Of a DNA stretch of 64,000 nt, positions 12,483-21,938 are shown one piece after another. Source of the DNA: Chamaesiphon sp. GTDB taxonomy: Bacteria; Cyanobacteriota; Cyanobacteriia; Cyanobacteriales; Chamaesiphonaceae. The DNA is taken from NCBI GenBank assembly GCA_965246715.1, contig CBDFFH010000015.1, positions 224,001 to 288,000 of the forward strand, written 5' to 3'. Position numbers and translations under genes: made by a program. Under the pieces are notes generated by a model, which saw only the letters and a program-made list of their open reading frames with translations, was not told where the DNA came from and made no database searches. The first letter of the stretch is position 1. Every line of letters begins with the position of its first letter.

Positions 12483-13232
12483 CTAAAACTCTCTATTGGC
12501 AGTAGTACCGATGCCTGCGACCGCAGTTTCTGGAAAATCGATGGGAACCGTTTCTAGTGCGGGAATTTGTTCGAGCTTGGTCAATGTATTGACCGAAAAT
12601 AGACCGAAGCCAACTTTAGAAACGATATCCAGGATCGTATAAAACATACTCTCAAAGCCACTACTCAACACCCCAAACCCCGTACCTGCCAAAATCCACA
12701 CTACTGGGTAAACCGTCCACACGGAAATGTGCAACGCAAGCAAGCGATTGAAGGCACTTTTACCGACCTTACCTGGGTGGTTTTGCATGGCCTCATTTCG
12801 GTATCTACCTACCAATAAAACTGTTACGCCGATATAAAAACCACAGCTTACTAAGTACCAGACATAGTTAATCGTTGGGGGTGAAATAGTTGCTAAGAAA
12901 CCAGTGGCAATCATCGCAGCATTGGCACCGATTAGCGAGCCTGCTGTTGACACTTGAATCCGTCCTAAGTGCGATAGCACCAATAGTAATAATGGGGTAG
13001 AGAGAAACCAAGTGATATACCGCACCCAGAAAGTCTCGTTCCCATAAAAAATGCCCTTACCTTGGCCCATTAACATCGCGAGATATAATACCGACGCGAT
13101 CGTGGTGATAAAAAAGTTTAAAGTATATAAAATCCGCCAGCGTTCGTTTGGCGCACGGTGAGCACCACTTCCAAACACGATCGCTCCTGCGGCCATACTT
13201 ATCAATCCGATCCACAGCCAAGTTTGAGTCAC
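12483..13232 (-). CDS. microbial rhodopsin, cyanobacterial halorhodopsin (CyHR) type, TSV motif
   Basis: 7 TM; helix C RYITWFLSTPLLLLV; helix G LDIVSKVGFG with the retinal Lys; N-terminus MTQTWLWIG..NERWRILYTLNFFI resembles Mastigocladopsis MrHR. Confidence 0.9.
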   Translation of the reverse strand: MTQTWLWIGLISMAAGAIVFGSGAHRAPNERWRILYTLNFFITTIASVLYLAMLMGQGKGIFYGNETFWVRYITWFLSTPLLLLVLSHLGRIQVSTAGSLIGANAAMIATGFLATISPPTINYVWYLVSCGFYIGVTVLLVGRYRNEAMQNHPGKVGKSAFNRLLALHISVWTVYPVVWILAGTGFGVLSSGFESMFYTILDIVSKVGFGLFSVNTLTKLEQIPALETVPIDFPETAVAGIGTTANREF

Positions 13233-13450
13233 GATCTCTTATCCTATTTAATATTGTCTGCGCTTATATATCCAAAAGTAGTCAAATCGAGCGCCAAATA
13301 CATCTATCTACCGACCGATTTAGCCAATCGCATGTCAAGACTGCACCATCGATCGATTGTCCAAGGAGAAACTAGCCGATCGAATTTTTTTAAACACCGT
13401 CAACCCTAGAAGTGTGTCAAGATCGAGGGATGAATGTCGATCGAGCCTAA

Positions 13451-13822
13451 ATGGAAGGTCTATTTAAATTACTGACGAATTATTTGGCGATCGCGATTGA
13501 AGCCAGTGCTAGTGTATTTATTGCCTTAGCCGCGATCGAAGCCGTCTGGCGGGCATTTGTGATGTATTTCAAGCAACGGCGCGCGCCGGAAGAACTGACG
13601 GAAGCGATCCGGTTGCGATTTGGCCGGTGGTTGTCACTGGCGCTGGAGTTTGAGTTGGGAGCGGATATTCTGCGGACGGCGATTTCGCCAGGCTGGACGG
13701 AAATCGGTCAATTAGCGGCGATTGTGGTATTGCGGACAGTGTTGAACTTCTTTTTGCAATTGGAAATCGATAAAGCGGCCGAACGCGATGCACTGATTGC
13801 AAAAAGACGCGATCGAGAGTGA
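13451..13822 (+). CDS. DUF1622 family membrane protein
   Basis: RLRFGRWLSLALEFELGADILRTAISPGWTEIGQLAAIVVLRTVLNFFL. Confidence 0.9.
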   Translation: MEGLFKLLTNYLAIAIEASASVFIALAAIEAVWRAFVMYFKQRRAPEELTEAIRLRFGRWLSLALEFELGADILRTAISPGWTEIGQLAAIVVLRTVLNFFLQLEIDKAAERDALIAKRRDRE

Positions 13823-13875
13823 CAAAGTGCTGAATTGGGGTGTGATTCGCCCTCTCCCGGCCTTTGCCAGCTAAA

Positions 13876-13928
13876 AACTTACCGTAGTTAGAATGCAGCG
13901 GTTGCATCCAAAAAAACTACGGTAAGTT
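13876..13928. terminator. inverted repeat between convergent genes
   Basis: AACTTACCGTAGTT...AACTACGGTAAGTT with inner ATGCAGCGGTTGCAT. Confidence 0.55.
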
Positions 13929-13973
13929 AGTGGTGGTTTCGATCGACATTATGCAGCTAATAACAATTTAAGT

Positions 13974-14663
13974 CTAACCTTCAGTTGTCGAGGGCATGCC
14001 TTGGTACGGACGGTGGTTACGCGCGCCAGCACTAGCCCCGAGCGTTGCCGCAGCCAATCCGAGTAGCGAACCCAGTGTAAATCCCCATCCGGCTTTCGCG
14101 CCGCTGTCAGATATTTGTCTAGTCTGTTGAGCGGTAGGAGGATTGACCTTCGGAGTAGTTGCTGTGCCGGTACCAGTTTGGTTGGTGGTCACGCCAGGAA
14201 CTTGTACGCCACCTTGTTGAACCTGGCTAGCAATGTTACCAGCATTGGATGCCGCGATCCCGAATGTACCGGATACACCACTAGCTAGCAACCAAGCACC
14301 GAGCGCAAGCGCGGTTGCCCACAAAATAGCACCGTTCAGGGTTGCGGTACTGCGGTTGATATAGTGACAAGCGCGGGAAGTTACCCAACCGCCAATAAAT
14401 AGCGAGATAAACAGGCTAACGATCGACCAAATGCCGACACCAGTAGCCACATCTCCAGCATCCGATCTCGGCGAACCTGAATTAGCGATCGAGGTAAATC
14501 CAATCGCGCTACCCAGCGCACTCAATAATAGTTCCGTGCTGATCGTTACTACCAGTCCAGCGAGGATCGCGCCCCAGTGGATCCGATCTCCAAAATCTGT
14601 ATTGTTAGTAATGTAGCGACGTTCTGTGGTGGTTGTCTCTACCGGACGGTTTGCGTAACCCAT
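13974..14663 (-). CDS. Gly/Ala-rich multi-pass membrane protein of a general-stress type
   Basis: DRIHWGAILAGLVV, GIWSIVSLFISLFIGGW, NGAILWA. Confidence 0.75.
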   Translation of the reverse strand: MGYANRPVETTTTERRYITNNTDFGDRIHWGAILAGLVVTISTELLLSALGSAIGFTSIANSGSPRSDAGDVATGVGIWSIVSLFISLFIGGWVTSRACHYINRSTATLNGAILWATALALGAWLLASGVSGTFGIAASNAGNIASQVQQGGVQVPGVTTNQTGTGTATTPKVNPPTAQQTRQISDSGAKAGWGFTLGSLLGLAAATLGASAGARNHRPYQGMPSTTEG

Positions 14664-14697
14664 AATTTTTCCTCCTAGGATATCAGAATTGGTGGAG

Positions 14698-14725
14698 CGG
14701 ACTTACGCCACTAGGCGTAAGTCCG
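14698..14725. terminator. intercistronic hairpin
   Basis: CGGACTTACGCC-ACTA-GGCGTAAGTCCG. Confidence 0.55.
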
Positions 14726-14733
14726 AGCTAAGT

Positions 14734-15768
14734 TTATTTAGATTCAGCTAACATCTTTTCCTGGGCTTGGCTTTTAGCCGTTTTAAACTGGGTGGCCATT
14801 TGCTTTTGTTGGTCGTCGCCAAAGTTGTCTTTGATACAACGCAGCGCTTCATTTTCTTCCTGCCGGACGTGCTCCATTACAGCGTTCATCAACTGGTCTA
14901 CCGCAGCTTTGAAAGAGACGGTATCTTGAGGATTCATCGCTTTGATTCGATCGAGTACTTGCTTCATTTCTGCTTGCTCGTCATACAACTCTTGGGTATC
15001 GCTGTAATAAGGACGCAATGCAGGGTAGAGAATTTCCTCTTCAGCTTCAGAGTGTGCGGACAAGTCTTTATAGATTTGGGCGAAGTACTCTTCAATCTTC
15101 GCGGGATCGTCAGTGGCTTTGATTTGGGTGAAGAGGGTGTTTACTTTTGTATGATCTAACCGGATCAGGTCAGAGATCTTCATCTCGTCATCGGTACGGC
15201 TGACAACGCTACCCGCAATCCCACTTAAAGCCGCAATCCCATCTTGAACGCGCGCCCACAGTCCTTGATCTGCTGCTTTCCCGGTGAGTTCCATCGTGCC
15301 CAGAGACTCCAACATGCCTTTGAGTTGCTCTTGGTGAGCGCGGTTTTCAAAGTTAACGGCATTGAGCGGGCCAATGGCTACTTCTACGTCCGCACCGACG
15401 ACTTGAGCAGCTTTGTGAACGATGATCCCGGACATGGTTTGACCGTGCTTGAGCAGTTCGTGTTGAGCGACTTTTTCATATAAAGTTAGCTCGGAACCTT
15501 GCATCAGCTTTCCAACTTCTTCGATCGCTTTTTGCGTAGTATCTTTGGGTTCAGCTTTGACTCCATACTGGACGATGACAGTATCGAGGATGCCTAAGTT
15601 CTTGCGATCGTCGCGCAAGAAATCTTCTAATCGATTGCTAATCTCCCGATCGGGACATTCTTTAATTAACGCTTCCTCATTCGCAATGAGCAGATTTTGG
15701 AAGGCTTTCATATCCGCTAGCTTAGTAGCGATCGCATTACGTTTACTATCTTCTAGTTCTACAGACAT
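14734..15768 (-). CDS. ferritin-like N-terminal domain plus hemerythrin (HHE) domain protein
   Basis: HELLKH, FENRAHQE; hemerythrin DH..., HSEAEEEILYP, EHVRQEE. Confidence 0.85.
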   Translation of the reverse strand: MSVELEDSKRNAIATKLADMKAFQNLLIANEEALIKECPDREISNRLEDFLRDDRKNLGILDTVIVQYGVKAEPKDTTQKAIEEVGKLMQGSELTLYEKVAQHELLKHGQTMSGIIVHKAAQVVGADVEVAIGPLNAVNFENRAHQEQLKGMLESLGTMELTGKAADQGLWARVQDGIAALSGIAGSVVSRTDDEMKISDLIRLDHTKVNTLFTQIKATDDPAKIEEYFAQIYKDLSAHSEAEEEILYPALRPYYSDTQELYDEQAEMKQVLDRIKAMNPQDTVSFKAAVDQLMNAVMEHVRQEENEALRCIKDNFGDDQQKQMATQFKTAKSQAQEKMLAESK

Positions 15769-15989
15769 ATTAGTATTGCTCTCGTGTAAATTTACAGGAT
15801 CTCCAAACTTGGAATAGCGAGAACTTTTGGTCTCTTTACTCTAGACTTACAGACAGATGTTTTAATTCCTGTATAAATTGCTTGACTAGATCGACTAGAC
15901 AATAAAATTTAATTTTTTATTTTTATTTATTTAAAATAATTATCTCGCTTACTAACTATCGCTCATGAATATTTGACTAGTTCTCAAAC

Positions 15990-17240
15990 ATGTTATACAA
16001 ATCAACCATAGTTCAAGCAGAGATCGAACTTGTTTTCCAACATGTCTATGTAAAACTAAATATGATGAATAAATACAGATTATCAAAGCTAATGATGCTA
16101 GGACAACAATCTACACAGCAGATCGAGAGTGACATCACTCTGCTGACAATCGAGACCGAACCAGCGGTATATACTACTGCCGAACAACAATTCGAGCGAA
16201 TGTTGGTTCTAGAAAACTTAGACGAACGCATTCAGCTAGAACCTGCACTAACTCAAGAGTTTGAAGCCGCGATCGATCGGGCGATCGGCATCGCATACCA
16301 GCAATCAGCTTCACAAGCTGCGACACCAGCACATCGATTTTTGCAACGAATCCTCTACCGCCTGAATCGACTCAACTTATTTTGGTATGACGATTTTGCT
16401 AAATATCACAACGAACGCTCTGTCTATCTCAATTCCGTACTCGATCGGATCGAATCTACCTGGCAAAGCTGGGAAGCAACCCAGTTAGATAATACACAAA
16501 TTGCCAAATTGGATCTCATCGGTGTCAAGCAAGCATTACAGCAGCGCGCGGAGCGAGACTTAGACCCACACTTATCTTCCGCCAAGCGATATCTGCGTGA
16601 AGAGATGACTTTAGCAGGATATCGAATGCTCCTGGCGATCGCCTCTTTGGATGGATTGGTCGAAGGTAGTCGGCTGTCGCGGATTTTGGGCGGTGCTTGT
16701 AACGAAATTCAAGCGACATTGATTCGAGTCTTGCTCGAGGAGTATGGCAGCGGGAAGTTATCGCGCAAGCATTCGACCTTCTTTGCTCAGATGATGGCGG
16801 AACTGGGTTTGAATACTCAGCCGGAAGGTTATTTCGAGATCGTGCCGTGGCAGGTTTTGGCAAGTATCAATCACAACTTCCTGCTGACCGAACGCAAACG
16901 GCACTTTTTACGCTACAACGGCGGGTTGACCTATTTTGAGATTGCAGGGCCGTCGATTTATACCGATTATCTAATGGCCGCGCAGCGGTTGCAGCTTTCG
17001 GATGCAGCGATGGGTTATTGGGAATTGCACATTCGGGAAGACGAACGGCACGGTCGCTGGATGCTGACGGATGTAGCGCTGCCTTTGGCGGAGAAGTATC
17101 CCGACCTCGCTTGGGAAATAGTTTGGGGTTACGACCAAGAGAAATTTATGGGCGATCGCGCGGCAAATGTAGTGATGGAGATGATTCGACAATCTATTAG
17201 CGTGTGTTTGGATCGGGCAGATCTCGCCACTACAATCTAA
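15990..17240 (+). CDS. heme-oxygenase-like diiron oxidase (iron-containing redox enzyme, HDO); true start probably 25-35 codons downstream
   Basis: LLEEYGSG..RKHSTFF, YFE, YWELHIREDERHG ligand set. Confidence 0.85.
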   Translation: MLYKSTIVQAEIELVFQHVYVKLNMMNKYRLSKLMMLGQQSTQQIESDITLLTIETEPAVYTTAEQQFERMLVLENLDERIQLEPALTQEFEAAIDRAIGIAYQQSASQAATPAHRFLQRILYRLNRLNLFWYDDFAKYHNERSVYLNSVLDRIESTWQSWEATQLDNTQIAKLDLIGVKQALQQRAERDLDPHLSSAKRYLREEMTLAGYRMLLAIASLDGLVEGSRLSRILGGACNEIQATLIRVLLEEYGSGKLSRKHSTFFAQMMAELGLNTQPEGYFEIVPWQVLASINHNFLLTERKRHFLRYNGGLTYFEIAGPSIYTDYLMAAQRLQLSDAAMGYWELHIREDERHGRWMLTDVALPLAEKYPDLAWEIVWGYDQEKFMGDRAANVVMEMIRQSISVCLDRADLATTI

Positions 17241-17497
17241 CTAACGATAGAGGCGAAACTATTTATGGTCGGGTTAGTATGCCGATAGTAATCGCTCGTT
17301 TCATCCATTTGCCATACTAAATTTATGCTTGTTAATCTAACTAGATCTGGTCGATAAAGTATTCTTAGATTCCACCTATCGCAACATTTGTTTGGTGCAA
17401 TAACTAACTTTATCGACGCTAGTCCAGCTAACTAGCAACTAATGGCAAATCAGCGATTGCTATATCCATCAACTTAGATATTAGGAACGCTACAATC

Positions 17498-18238
17498 ATG
17501 ATTGTCAATCTAACTAAAGATGGCTGGGAGACCATCTACCATCGCGCACATGCCTTACTTGCAGCTCAACTCGGCGGTCAATGGCGACGTGCTGATGCCC
17601 CAGAGCGCTTTTATGAGACATTGGCCGCGATCGCACATCACGACGATCTCGAACGTGAGTGGCAGGGAAATCAATTAACAAAAACTGGCGCTCCCCTGGA
17701 CTTTACCCTGGGTGATGTCGAGCCGGAAGTATCGTTAGCGAAAACTAAAAAACATTTAGAGGAAGCTCGCTATCGCGGTCGGTGGGTGACAATGCTCACT
17801 TCAATGCATATTTGTTATCTCAGTCAAGCTAACAGAGATATTTCCAAAGATTGGAGCGATTTTCTTGACGAACAAATCAAATGTCAAGCGCAATGGCGTA
17901 AGGAATTGGGGATCACCAAAGATGAAGCCGAACGTGCTTATCAATTTATGCAGTGGTGCGATCGCTTGTCACTAATATTGACGCAACGCCAAGTGCCAGA
18001 AGACGGTCGCTCGCTCGAAATAACACATGGGATCGACGCTCGACGTTACGATCTGCGCTGTTTGCAAAATGGCAATTTAACGGTAGAACCGTGGCCGTTT
18101 CAAGACGATAAATTTACAGTGAATGTCGAATCGGCTCATTTAACCCAACTCAAATACGACAGCGATGAAGAGCTGGTTACTGCCCTCAAGCAAGCCCCGA
18201 TCTCCAGTTTGGAATGGACATTTGCCAAGCATAAATAA
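17498..18238 (+). CDS. DUF3891 family protein (HD-like motif)
   Basis: HRAHALLAAQL, AIAHHDD, GAPLDF, QWCDRLSLIL, VEPWPF. Confidence 0.85.
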   Translation: MIVNLTKDGWETIYHRAHALLAAQLGGQWRRADAPERFYETLAAIAHHDDLEREWQGNQLTKTGAPLDFTLGDVEPEVSLAKTKKHLEEARYRGRWVTMLTSMHICYLSQANRDISKDWSDFLDEQIKCQAQWRKELGITKDEAERAYQFMQWCDRLSLILTQRQVPEDGRSLEITHGIDARRYDLRCLQNGNLTVEPWPFQDDKFTVNVESAHLTQLKYDSDEELVTALKQAPISSLEWTFAKHK

Positions 18239-18249
18239 CTAATATTGAT

Positions 18250-19026
18250 ATGTACCAGTCATCGATCGATTTTCAACAACAATTAGTCCAACCCAATCGG
18301 TTGTCAGCTACGACGGCAATCCAGGCGCTAGAAGTGCCGCGAGAAATCTTCTACTGTCCTGAAGAGTCACAATTTTATGCTCAATGCCTGCTGAAAATGG
18401 TATTCTATCGCTGTGAGGATTTTACGACCATTGTCGAGTTCGGGATGGGAGAGGGCACTCCGACGATTGATTGTTTGCTCAAGCGTGAATTTAATGGAAC
18501 GATTCACGGCTACGAACTCAATACCACGGCTTGTCAGGTAGCACAGGCGCGGATCGCACATTATTGTTTGGGCGATCGTTATATCATTCACAATATTAGC
18601 TTTGATAAGTGCGCTTCCGCCGATTATCTAATTGCCAATCCTCCCTATCTCCCTGCATTAGATAACGATCTCTACTTGCCTGCGTTACATGGCGGACATG
18701 ATGGTGCAGAGATTACCAAACAGCTATTAACTCTAGATTTTCCCCAGGCAATGTTGATGATTTCGGCATATTCCGATCCGGTCGGGACGATCGAATTGGC
18801 CTTGTCCGAGGGCTATCGAGTTACAGATTTTATGATTTCACCGATGAGTTTTGGGTATTATAGTTCTGAACCCAAAGTCAAGCATCGCATCGCCGAACTT
18901 CGTCAGCACGATCGAGCATTTTATTCACCAAATATCTACCTTCTAGCTGGAGTTCTATTTACAAAGCAGGACGATTTACAGCCGGATTTGTCAGCAGAGT
19001 TAATTAAAATTATGTCAGCATTGTAA
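18250..19026 (+). CDS. class I SAM-dependent methyltransferase with NPPY motif (HemK-like)
   Basis: IVEFGMGEG motif I, GYELN, IANPPYLPA, LHGGHDG. Confidence 0.85.
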   Translation: MYQSSIDFQQQLVQPNRLSATTAIQALEVPREIFYCPEESQFYAQCLLKMVFYRCEDFTTIVEFGMGEGTPTIDCLLKREFNGTIHGYELNTTACQVAQARIAHYCLGDRYIIHNISFDKCASADYLIANPPYLPALDNDLYLPALHGGHDGAEITKQLLTLDFPQAMLMISAYSDPVGTIELALSEGYRVTDFMISPMSFGYYSSEPKVKHRIAELRQHDRAFYSPNIYLLAGVLFTKQDDLQPDLSAELIKIMSAL

Positions 19027-19247
19027 GTTACGCGACCGCTTCGGACTGACCTAGTGATTTTAGAATTGTGAAATAGCTAGCTAAAATTGGATCTATTTCA
19101 CTCTCGATTTAAATTGCTTAGCACATTTTAGCTATTTATACCGATCCGATCGTTGGTTATTTATACCTTAATATAGATGATTTTGTTAAGCGGAGTGAAT
19201 TACAATTAAGTTAATAACGAGCGGTAAAATTCTAAATTGCAGCACTC

Positions 19248-20012
19248 ATGAATTTGTCTCCAGAAAATTCCGATCCTTTAATTCATCACGAGCTAGATGA
19301 TTCAGAAATTGGTATCGGCGGAGTGGCGGTAGCGCTGTTAATTATCTCCATTTGGGCGATCGGGTTAGGATTTTTGTGGACTACTGTAAACGTCGATCGA
19401 CTGCCACTGTGGTGTACGCTCTTGGCGATTTTGTGGCAAGCCTTTATCTATACGGGGCTATTTATTACCGCTCACGATGCCATGCACGGGGCAATCGCTC
19501 CTAAATCTCCTCGCCTCAATCGGGCGATCGGTCAGTTTACGCTGATCGCCTATGGTTTGTTCTCCTACGAGCGGCTGTTAACAGCGCATCGTCAGCACCA
19601 TCACCATCCCGCTAGCGATTTAGATCCTGACTTTCATGATGGTAACTCTACTAGCGCTGTCGCTTGGTATTTGTACTTTATGAAACGTTATTGGAATTGG
19701 ATGCAGTTTCTCGCCCAAGTTACTACATTTCACATCTTCCATCTGATTTGCGGCATTCCCGAAGCAAACCTGATCCTGTTTTGGATCGTGCCGGCATTAA
19801 TGAGTTCGATGCAACTGTTCTATTTTGGAACTTTTCTACCACATAGCGAACCCCAAGATGGCTACAAGGACAAATTTCGCACCCAAAGCAGCTATCGACC
19901 GCTGTGGTTGTCATTTGTTACTTGTTACCACTTCGGTTATCATCACGAACACCACCGCTTTCCAAATTTAGCTTGGTGGCAATTGCCCAAGGCAGTCCGC
20001 TCTCTAACATGA
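19248..20012 (+). CDS. crtW: beta-carotene ketolase
   Basis: TGLFITAHDAMHG, HRQHHHHP..DPDFH, LFYFGTFLPH, CYHFGYHHEHH. Confidence 0.9.
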   Translation: MNLSPENSDPLIHHELDDSEIGIGGVAVALLIISIWAIGLGFLWTTVNVDRLPLWCTLLAILWQAFIYTGLFITAHDAMHGAIAPKSPRLNRAIGQFTLIAYGLFSYERLLTAHRQHHHHPASDLDPDFHDGNSTSAVAWYLYFMKRYWNWMQFLAQVTTFHIFHLICGIPEANLILFWIVPALMSSMQLFYFGTFLPHSEPQDGYKDKFRTQSSYRPLWLSFVTCYHFGYHHEHHRFPNLAWWQLPKAVRSLT

Positions 20013-20039
20013 ATGCGGTGCTGGATTCCAAGACAAAAA

Positions 20040-20070
20040 TATAGGGGTACCTACTAGTGATACCCCTATA
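20040..20070. terminator. hairpin between convergent crtW and ndhK
   Basis: TATAGGGGTA...TACCCCTATA. Confidence 0.55.
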
Positions 20071-20129
20071 AAATGAGTAAAAGCCGCAAGGAGTACCCCG
20101 ACTCAGATTTTTAATTTAACCAGATCGAA

Positions 20130-20894
20130 CTACTTAAGCGTGAGATCGTTAGTTGTCTCCAGACTGGGTTGCGGTTGAGAGGTTAATAATGCTGGTGGTA
20201 GCACCTCTGCACCTATGCCTGCGGCGATTTCAGCAGGTAGGCGTTCGTAGTTGCCATCTTGCAAGTAAGCCCCAGTATGCAGCGGTGCGATGACGCGTAG
20301 ATTATGGGTAGTAGTGTAATAACGATGCGTTTGTTGCTGTTGTAACCGCTGTTGCATCGATTCGGTGGCGATTTTCTTGCGGAGTTTAATCAATGCATCG
20401 AGTAAAGCTTCTGGACGCGGCGGACATCCAGGCAGATAGACATCCACTGGGATGAGTTTATCCACGCCTCGCACCGCCGTGTGCGAGTCGGCACTAAACA
20501 TTCCCCCCGTAATCGTACAGGCTCCCATGGCAATTACATATTTAGGTTCGGGCATCTGTTCGTACAGTCGAATCAGTGCTGGAGCCATTTTCATCGTAAT
20601 CGTCCCAGCCGTGATAATTAAGTCTGCCTGACGGGGACTATTGCGGGGAAAACTACCAGTTCGATCGAGATCGAATCGAGCACCAAGTAGCGCCGCAAAT
20701 TCAATAAAGCAACATGCAGTGCCAAATTGGAGCGGATACAGACTGGAATATCGCGCCCAATCATAGATATCGTCTACGGTGGTTAAAATAACATTTTCAG
20801 ACAGATTGGTAGTGACTTGGGGGCGTGCTACCGGATTCATCATGCGATTTGCCGAGGGCGAGGCTTCGCCAACGAGATCGTTATGTTGCAACAT
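20130..20894 (-). CDS. ndhK: NDH-1 subunit K, stand-alone copy (ndhK2-like)
   Basis: [41 protein letters not shown]; no ndhC or ndhJ adjacent. Confidence 0.92.
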
Positions 20895-21099
20895 TTTTTA
20901 GCTCCTGTTGACAGATCGATCGAGCAGAGAGTGAGTATTGGCTATTTCCAGCTTGGCAATCATGCGGTTAAGTTCTTGCTTGAATTGATTGACTAATTTA
21001 CAAAATTTAGTAAATATTTACTGCCAAAATTTCAGCTCGAGCGGTGCGCGATCGGATCCGTACGCAAATGTGCTAAGTTCGGCAAAGTTCGATCGTCAG

Positions 21100-21447: not shown

Positions 21448-21717
21448 TTATAGTCTGGAACCGATCGTAGCAACTAATACGACCAAACCTAATGTCCGGC
21501 GAAAGGTATTAACACCTTGAAATAATTCCATTAACGACCAGACAAAAATGGAACCGTAGGAGATCGCATCTAAAGCCGCGTAAAGACTACCATTGTTAGC
21601 AACTAATTTAAGGATGCTGGCGACTGCCCACACGGTAATGGGGATATTCGGCGGCTGGATGATGACCACATTGCCTTTGTCATCTTGAAAAAATCGATCG
21701 AGTGAGCTAGCTTGCAT
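21448..21717 (-). CDS. small membrane protein
   Basis: FFQDDKGNVVIIQPPN, WSLMELFQGVNTFRRTLG. Confidence 0.7.
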   Translation of the reverse strand: MQASSLDRFFQDDKGNVVIIQPPNIPITVWAVASILKLVANNGSLYAALDAISYGSIFVWSLMELFQGVNTFRRTLGLVVLVATIGSRL

Positions 21718-21938
21718 AATGATATAAATGAGCAAATTTATCGATAAATTTGCACTAATTAGATAGGTTTATTTAGTTATGATTATCTAAGACCGATGTT
21801 TGATTTTTTGAGTGATTTGTTTGAATAAAATTGCCCCCAGAGATATTAGTTTCTAGCAGCTCTCGATCGCGATCGAGTTTCGATCCTCATGGGAGGACGC
21901 TGGCTGAATAGGCGATCGAGAGCGACGGATCGAATAAA

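Follow-up and report, generated by a model that had tools for sequence, protein, structure and literature searches.

A conserved gene pair of a diiron oxidase of the heme-oxygenase-like type and a HemK2-like methyltransferase in cyanobacteria and green algae

The window analyzed here is a stretch of 64,000 nt from the genome of Chamaesiphon sp. (assembly GCA_965246715.1, contig CBDFFH010000015.1, positions 224,001 to 288,000); all positions given below are those of the window. Two of its genes are the subject of this report. One codes for a diiron oxidase of the heme-oxygenase-like type (HDO) with a 3-His/4-carboxylate (3H/4C) site (PF14518; open reading frame [ORF] 15990–17240, forward strand). 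The other codes for a single-domain class I S-adenosylmethionine-dependent methyltransferase (MT; 18250–19026, forward strand) which is similar to HemK2/Mtq2, carries an NPPY motif at about 18637–18648, and is devoid of the N-terminal domain of PrmC. A DUF3891 gene (17498–18238, forward strand) is located between them, separated by 257 nt from the HDO gene and by 11 nt from the MT gene. A gene for a hemerythrin/HHE-domain protein (14734–15768, reverse strand) is divergent from the HDO gene, with an AT-rich spacer in between (15769–16064; the GC content is 0.31 for 15700–15999). The MT gene is followed by a gene for a CrtW beta-carotene ketolase-like protein (19248–20012, forward strand), which scored 347.8 bits (cut-off 350) in a search of NCBIfam-type profiles. 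The original prediction, made from the letters of the DNA and a list of its ORFs, had described the hemerythrin, HDO, DUF3891, and MT genes with their orientations, the AT-rich divergent spacer, the 11-nt spacing of the last two genes, and the motifs NPPY (MT) and AHHD (DUF3891), and all of this is borne out; the 257-nt gap and the CrtW-like neighbor had not been mentioned. The HDO, DUF3891, and MT genes are each single-copy in this genome. Because homologs start near M26–M36 of the longest ORF, the true start of the HDO is probably within this range (16065–16095), and the protein probably has about 380–390 residues. A scan of 13000–21000 against Rfam gave no match, and a scan for sigma-70 promoters and terminators gave results at chance level (12 vs. 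11.3; 8 vs. 6.4).

The distribution of the genes was analyzed in an even sample of 301 genomes from the phylum, among which close relatives do not count as independent. The HDO is present in 36 of these genomes. MT matches were obtained for 53, and 36 are left upon removal of 17 weak partial matches (E-value 1.9e-7 or worse); these are the same 36 genomes which have the HDO. The two genes are adjacent in 35 of them (21 in tandem and 14 convergent), one of which has mere remnants of both genes. In the 36th genome, a broken piece of the HDO gene adjoins the MT gene and the intact HDO gene is located elsewhere. The best 80 of 92 HDO loci, in which the presence of other genes was assessed by tblastn, contain MT in 76 cases, DUF3891 in 17, CrtW in 10, and hemerythrin in 3. 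Three of the four HDO loci which lack MT are at contig ends (one has a partial MT), and one absence is apparently real. The best 80 of at least 328 metagenome MT loci contain HDO in 64 cases, DUF3891 in 10, CrtW in 6, and hemerythrin in 2. Quick trees of HDO and MT, compared by eye, are broadly alike. The linkage between HDO and MT survives rearrangement, and the conserved unit consists of these two genes. The original prediction had assumed a gene cluster for a minimal pathway. General co-transcription does not hold, since 14 of the 36 genomes have the two genes in convergent orientation; what stands is a tightly co-conserved, uncharacterized pair with an N-oxygenase-like and an N-methyltransferase-like anatomy.

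The pair extends into nuclear genomes of eukaryotes. Close homologs of the HDO are encoded in green algae (Chlamydomonas CHLRE_03g149700, Volvox, Trebouxia, Tetradesmus, Haematococcus, and others); a single Pyrinomonadaceae protein is also among the close homologs. Many algal HDOs have N-terminal extensions which resemble transit peptides, as judged by look and not by a predictor. The MT profile also matches algal proteins. In all three species where both proteins were seen, their accessions are consecutive: Haematococcus (KAL6753524/5), Scenedesmus PABB004 (KAF8068326/7), and Pleodorina, in three assemblies (GLC42614/5, GLC56548/9, GLC68791/2). The algal HDOs form one clade in a quick tree (support 99), and so do 10 of 11 algal or presumed algal MTs (92), which are sister to the cyanobacterial MTs (98; together 96). 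This gene neighborhood is already in print. Foflonker and Blaby-Haas (PMC7826186) report it for Chlamydomonas (Cre03.g149700/Cre03.g149750), Volvox, Chromochloris, and Coccomyxa, and as absent in five other chlorophytes. Cre03.g149700 belongs to the same HDO family, and its neighbor carries the annotation of a PrmC-like MT. Among the 317 neighborhoods of that ten-genome survey, it is the only one which consists of non-Viridiplantae, cyanobacterial-like proteins alone (PMC7826186). In the parts of that paper cited here, it is covered by one sentence and a table row, which give neither a function nor a mechanism nor a survey of cyanobacteria.

The assignment of the HDO to Haem_oxygenas_2 (PF14518) is unambiguous by score (4.2e-27; 95.5 bits vs. 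a cut-off of 28.9). Its metal ligands are E225, E251, H261, E317, H347, D351, and H354 (in the 416-aa frame), all seven of which are kept in 39 of 39 family rows of the alignment; E251, H261, E317, H347, D351, and H354 represent the 3-His/3-carboxylate (3H/3C) core. The original prediction was thus correct with respect to the diiron site but had counted six ligands rather than seven. The seventh ligand, the invariant E225, aligns with glutamates from RohS (E98, DGLTE) and SznF (E189, DFLSE). A seventh glutamate has been described as the mark of the substrate-independent N-oxygenase subgroup of HDOs (PMC13133933). By its ligand set, the HDO likely belongs to this 3H/4C subgroup 1 (SznF/RohS type), and N-oxygenase activity is predicted. 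The structure model (382 aa, pLDDT 83.9) is all-helical. Its Foldseek matches, all of them of the HDO type, are led by HrmI (TMq 0.75, 339 columns), RohS, and SznF, with FlcD, BesC, CADD, and UndA behind; the identity to the fold matches is 17–22% in structural alignments. On the sequence level, the best characterized match is RohS (E-value 2e-19). Characterized HDOs act mostly on fatty or amino acids (PMC13108848). The HDO has no cupin domain: PF14518 is the only Pfam match, the model is all-helical, and a weak search among longer proteins revealed no fused form. A fusion between HDO and MT was also considered and was not found by this weak search among longer proteins, the sole match being an HDO model from an alga, the tail of which is duplicated.

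Upstream of the HDO gene, the motif CTnncgaaAGAtGtAcag is present in 48 of 81 dereplicated upstream regions (loci L001–L177) compared to about 7 in shuffled sequences; the seed of the motif had been picked out visually, and the set used for training was the one in which the motif was counted. It is missing from the spacer in the window; its top matches in the genome of the window include stress-type genes, for example, a peroxiredoxin-like ORF.

The MT is less easily placed. It matches the Pfam model MTS (0.0094) below the cut-off of that model, as is the case for the HemK models, and it scores far below every NCBIfam cut-off (34 vs. 115.5 bits). The PrmC/HemK equivalog is matched with 24.8 vs. 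199 bits, the alignment starting at HemK residue 98, and HemK2/MTQ2 (TIGR00537) with 16.5 vs. 87 bits. The NPPY/HemK motifs are retained, and there is a family-specific C-terminal insertion. The closest structures to the MT model (pLDDT 83.2) are N6AMT1/Mtq2 (Z 16.7, rmsd 2.6, 178 aligned), followed by TrmM, PsiM, PrmA, PrmC, and MmtN with Z-scores of 15–16. Thus, the MT shares with HemK2/N6AMT1/Mtq2 and PrmC the NPPY motif, the GGxDG loop, and the single-domain fold, but differs by its scores below cut-off, its C-terminal insertion, and its association with an HDO. NPPY pockets select planar nitrogens. Named small-molecule N-methyltransferases are among the HemK-like matches (Asc-Orf2, apramycin N-methyltransferase, PsiM). 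Two specific assignments were set aside. A function as PrmC/HemK release-factor methyltransferase is contradicted by the score and by the missing N-terminal domain, which binds the substrate (release factor). The assignment as MmtN (Met S-methyltransferase of the DMSP route) was dropped; its Z-score of 15.3 is below that of N6AMT1 and tied with PsiM, PrmC, and PrmA; MmtN is not among the 60 best MT sequence matches shown. MT queries against plasmids gave no match. The family has many deeper members without a name (proteins P0164–P0303).

The fact that HDO and MT are adjacent across cyanobacteria and algae points to a tightly coupled reaction. We tentatively favor, at slightly less than even confidence, that they form a two-gene module for the N-methylation and N-oxygenation of one small substrate derived from an amino acid. 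The MT would methylate a planar nitrogen, the best guess being an arginine-type guanidine, and the HDO would then N-hydroxylate the same molecule. The resulting N-methyl/N-hydroxy metabolite would probably be used under stress. An arginine-type guanidine is in itself an unlikely choice, suggested by analogy because methylarginine is the substrate of SznF and 2-aminoimidazole that of RohS (PMC13133933, PMC13108848) and because one distant locus holds dimethylargininase. Photosynthetic ferredoxin may be the electron donor, since the cyanobacterial pairs have no dedicated reductase gene as a recurring neighbor, whereas Rieske and CDGSH proteins are encoded in the SznF-like and actinobacterial loci, respectively; ferredoxin would then replace these partners of the modules from non-phototrophs. 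In algae, the pair may be located in the plastid.

Several known systems resemble the pair in part. Streptozotocin biosynthesis by SznE and SznF also combines an N-methyltransferase with an N-oxygenase of the 3H/4C HDO type, and this analogy, drawn in the original prediction, is only half upheld. The HDO domain of SznF is similar to the HDO, with E-values of 1e-10 to 4e-13 and an alignment of all seven ligands. However, the MT shows no BLAST similarity (E > 0.5) to the PrmA-annotated, SznE-type MTs from two SznF-like loci, which from their context appear to be SznE orthologs. In addition, SznF-like loci have Rieske and ATP-grasp genes and SznF has a cupin, none of which is found with the pair from the window. 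RohS (azomycin) is the best sequence match and shares the seventh glutamate, and HrmI from the HrmI/BelK type (6-nitronorleucine) is the best fold match but has a 3H/3C site; the roh or hrm partner genes do not recur in the loci of the pair. The analogy to guanitoxin biosynthesis had to be abandoned, as GntA is a heme enzyme and not an HDO (PMC10849742); there is no YqcI/YcgG heme N-oxygenase family member among the scanned ORFs of the window. A parallel in gene content is an apparently uncharacterized actinobacterial module on plasmids, in which a HemK2/MTQ2-type MT, a CDGSH iron-sulfur protein, and an HDO (an iron-containing redox enzyme) are neighbors in three of five loci, the other two having no annotated MT. 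Homology of both enzymes to those from the window was tested for one locus and confirmed (hhalign probabilities 97.9% and 97.3%). Neighbors in the actinobacterial loci include genes for a SigB-type sigma factor or CsbD, and general-stress surroundings are shared as well. The module differs from the phototroph pair by its CDGSH partner, and the identity is about 21–28%. In one actinobacterial locus, the genes immediately upstream of the HDO code for dimethylargininase and a YbdK ligase. A cyanobacterium, Gloeothece verrucosa, has a separate SznF-like cluster (HDO, Rieske, ATP-grasp) on a plasmid (L084).

A number of points weigh against the proposed small-molecule module. The arginine pointer consists of analogy and one actinobacterial locus. 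The nearest structures of the MT, N6AMT1 and Mtq2, are protein methyltransferases. The chemistry of an HDO is not determined by its ligand set, and HrmI, which leads the fold matches, is 3H/3C (PMC13108848). Four of the 16 metagenome MT loci without HDO have full 5-kb flanks, and the majority of loci have no transporter, ligase, or precursor gene in common. Searches for data on activity, metabolites, or expression under stress came up empty. The available expression evidence, all from Chlamydomonas tables and supplements, is without sign of stress induction: transcript levels of the HDO are low (about 2 in every wild-type sample) with little change upon singlet oxygen (PMC4067076), and the gene was assigned to a module of heat recovery with enrichment for DNA synthesis (PMC9106746); these tables gave no match to the MT gene id. 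Neither gene is in the searched supplement files on osmotic stress and zygotes (PMC11252407, PMC4889651), and the supplement of PMC8226298 gave no match. We regard as very doubtful a bolder version, in which an undescribed ancient pathway of cyanobacteria, chlorophytes, and, distantly, actinobacteria would methylate arginine and N-hydroxylate it via ferredoxin to an N-hydroxy-N-methylguanidine, which would serve as radical scavenger or as NO source independent of NO synthase.

The original prediction had united HDO, DUF3891, MT, and hemerythrin in a single pathway. In its favor, most of the 17 HDO loci which contain DUF3891 have it between HDO and MT, the metagenome locus L105 repeats the layout of the window, and among the 36 genomes with HDO, DUF3891 is encoded in 29 and hemerythrin in 35. 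However, DUF3891 adjoins HDO in only three of the 36 genomes, being truncated in two of these, and within the cassette it is broken in at least 4 of the 17 loci; hemerythrin and the pair are no more than 5 kb apart in only three of the 36 genomes. Both also occur on their own: 12 of the 41 genomes with DUF3891 and 25 of the 60 with hemerythrin have no HDO, and DUF3891 is elsewhere found next to Mn-catalase or other genes. A joint pathway of these four genes is thus highly improbable. The DUF3891 protein, putatively HD-like according to the original prediction, is assigned with a Pfam E-value of 2.7e-74 and has the HHD motif, its best sequence match in the PDB being weak (E = 1.4). The hemerythrin match (Pfam 8.5e-17) covers only residues 198–309 in the C-terminal half, and the genome has a second copy (94% identical) elsewhere without the pair. 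The hemerythrin protein presumably resembles Alr3199 from Anabaena. Alr3199 is a stress-induced HHE protein (PMC6584798). The cassettes with DUF3891 form one clade in both the HDO and the MT tree, with TspO, HliP, Dps, and CrtW as neighbors, CrtW recurring downstream of MT. Stress-gene surroundings, as originally supposed, are thus common in this clade and suggest a general-stress island, while most copies of the pair from Nostocales are in unrelated surroundings. DUF3891, hemerythrin, and CrtW are likely co-located general-stress genes or passengers rather than pathway members. A carotenoid- or apocarotenoid-linked function of the pair might be suspected from CrtW in 10 of the 80 HDO loci and 6 of the 80 MT loci, and from Cre03.g149650 (CCD1, a carotenoid cleavage dioxygenase), which flanks the Chlamydomonas pair as an echo of the cyanobacterial CrtW. 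This function has very little to recommend it, as CrtW accompanies the pair almost exclusively in a single clade, the cited parts of the survey do not mark CCD1 as a conserved member in the other algae (PMC7826186), and an NPPY MT together with a soluble N-oxygenase-like HDO would better suit nitrogen chemistry.

Two further explanations retain the pair as such. The MT might methylate a Gln or Lys residue in a conserved protein of plastids or cyanobacteria, possibly the HDO itself, with the HDO oxidizing that site or being regulated by methylation. The nearest structures and profiles (N6AMT1, Mtq2, PrmC) represent protein N-methyltransferases, no transporter or ligase recurs in the loci, and HDOs can modify ribosomal peptides (PMC13108848), all of which is consistent with protein modification. 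It is nevertheless somewhat unlikely: no conserved ORF for a precursor or target is found near the pair, the MT lacks the substrate domain of PrmC, the occurrence in 36 of 301 genomes is patchy for a housekeeping-type target, and the closest characterized HDOs use free small molecules. Alternatively, the HDO might be a stress protector, acting as iron sink or scavenger of reactive oxygen species, with the MT as accessory modifier and no metabolite involved. This explanation draws on DtpC from Acinetobacter, an HDO which protects dried cells against desiccation-induced oxidative stress by a mechanism still open (PMC13232832). It is also consistent with TspO, HliP, Dps, and CrtW in the DUF3891 clade, with the SigB-type sigma factor or CsbD next to the actinobacterial homologs, and with O2 binding at 3H/4C sites without substrate (PMC13133933). 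However, it leaves unexplained why the linkage to MT is near-obligate even in eukaryotes, and most Nostocales copies are outside of stress islands. DtpC itself differs, being co-transcribed with catalase and reported with six ligands, and the term methyltransferase is absent from the main text of that report (PMC13232832). We thus consider a role as stress protector quite unlikely, and a module which acts on a small molecule remains our preferred interpretation.

With respect to what was known before, the algal neighborhood had been printed as one uninterpreted line, and the logic of combining an MT with an HDO is that of SznE/SznF. The pair differs from this by its MT family, the lack of a cupin, and the cross-kingdom two-gene unit. 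In the literature searched, a scope which left out most subscription papers, we found no characterization of DUF3891, of Cre03.g149700 or its neighboring gene ids, or of cyanobacterial HDO-methyltransferase pairs. It is rare for a gene pair to keep its adjacency from cyanobacteria to the nuclear genomes of eukaryotes, and only about a dozen HDOs had been functionally validated as of a 2026 review (PMC13108848). As a minimal system whose genes are named in Chlamydomonas (Cre03.g149700 and Cre03.g149750), the pair is directly testable, and its study might uncover a new nitrogen metabolite from algae and terrestrial cyanobacteria.

Other genes accompany the pair in individual lineages. A second methyltransferase is encoded beside the pair in nine loci; as it is unlinked in all five genomes which hold it, it does not belong to the core. 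In Rhizonema (L066, L069), a second methyltransferase and an amino-acid ABC transporter-like gene (assigned by eye) precede the pair. A stand-alone nonribosomal peptide synthetase (NRPS) with C-A-T-TE architecture is encoded directly upstream of MT in three loci (L138:714–4742, L124:713–4702, and L128); in L138, the NRPS is located between a divergent HDO gene and the MT gene, with a second methyltransferase downstream. In five related Nostocales loci, a gene which is ligase-like as judged from its motif, with no Pfam match, faces MT.

In the window itself, a microbial rhodopsin-like gene (12483–13232, reverse strand; PF01036, 5.1e-49) belongs to the same stretch of stress genes. The hemerythrin gene and its neighbor, which codes for a 229-aa membrane protein (together 13974–15768), are duplicated on another contig of the genome (C1, 21328–23128) with 91–94% identity. 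Beside the CrtW-like gene is a second copy of ndhK/nuoB (20130–20894, reverse strand), which is 74% identical to the copy on contig C49. A small membrane protein without Pfam match is encoded at 21448–21735 (reverse strand); its homologs directly follow MT in L003, L006, and L007 and are encoded nearby in L108.

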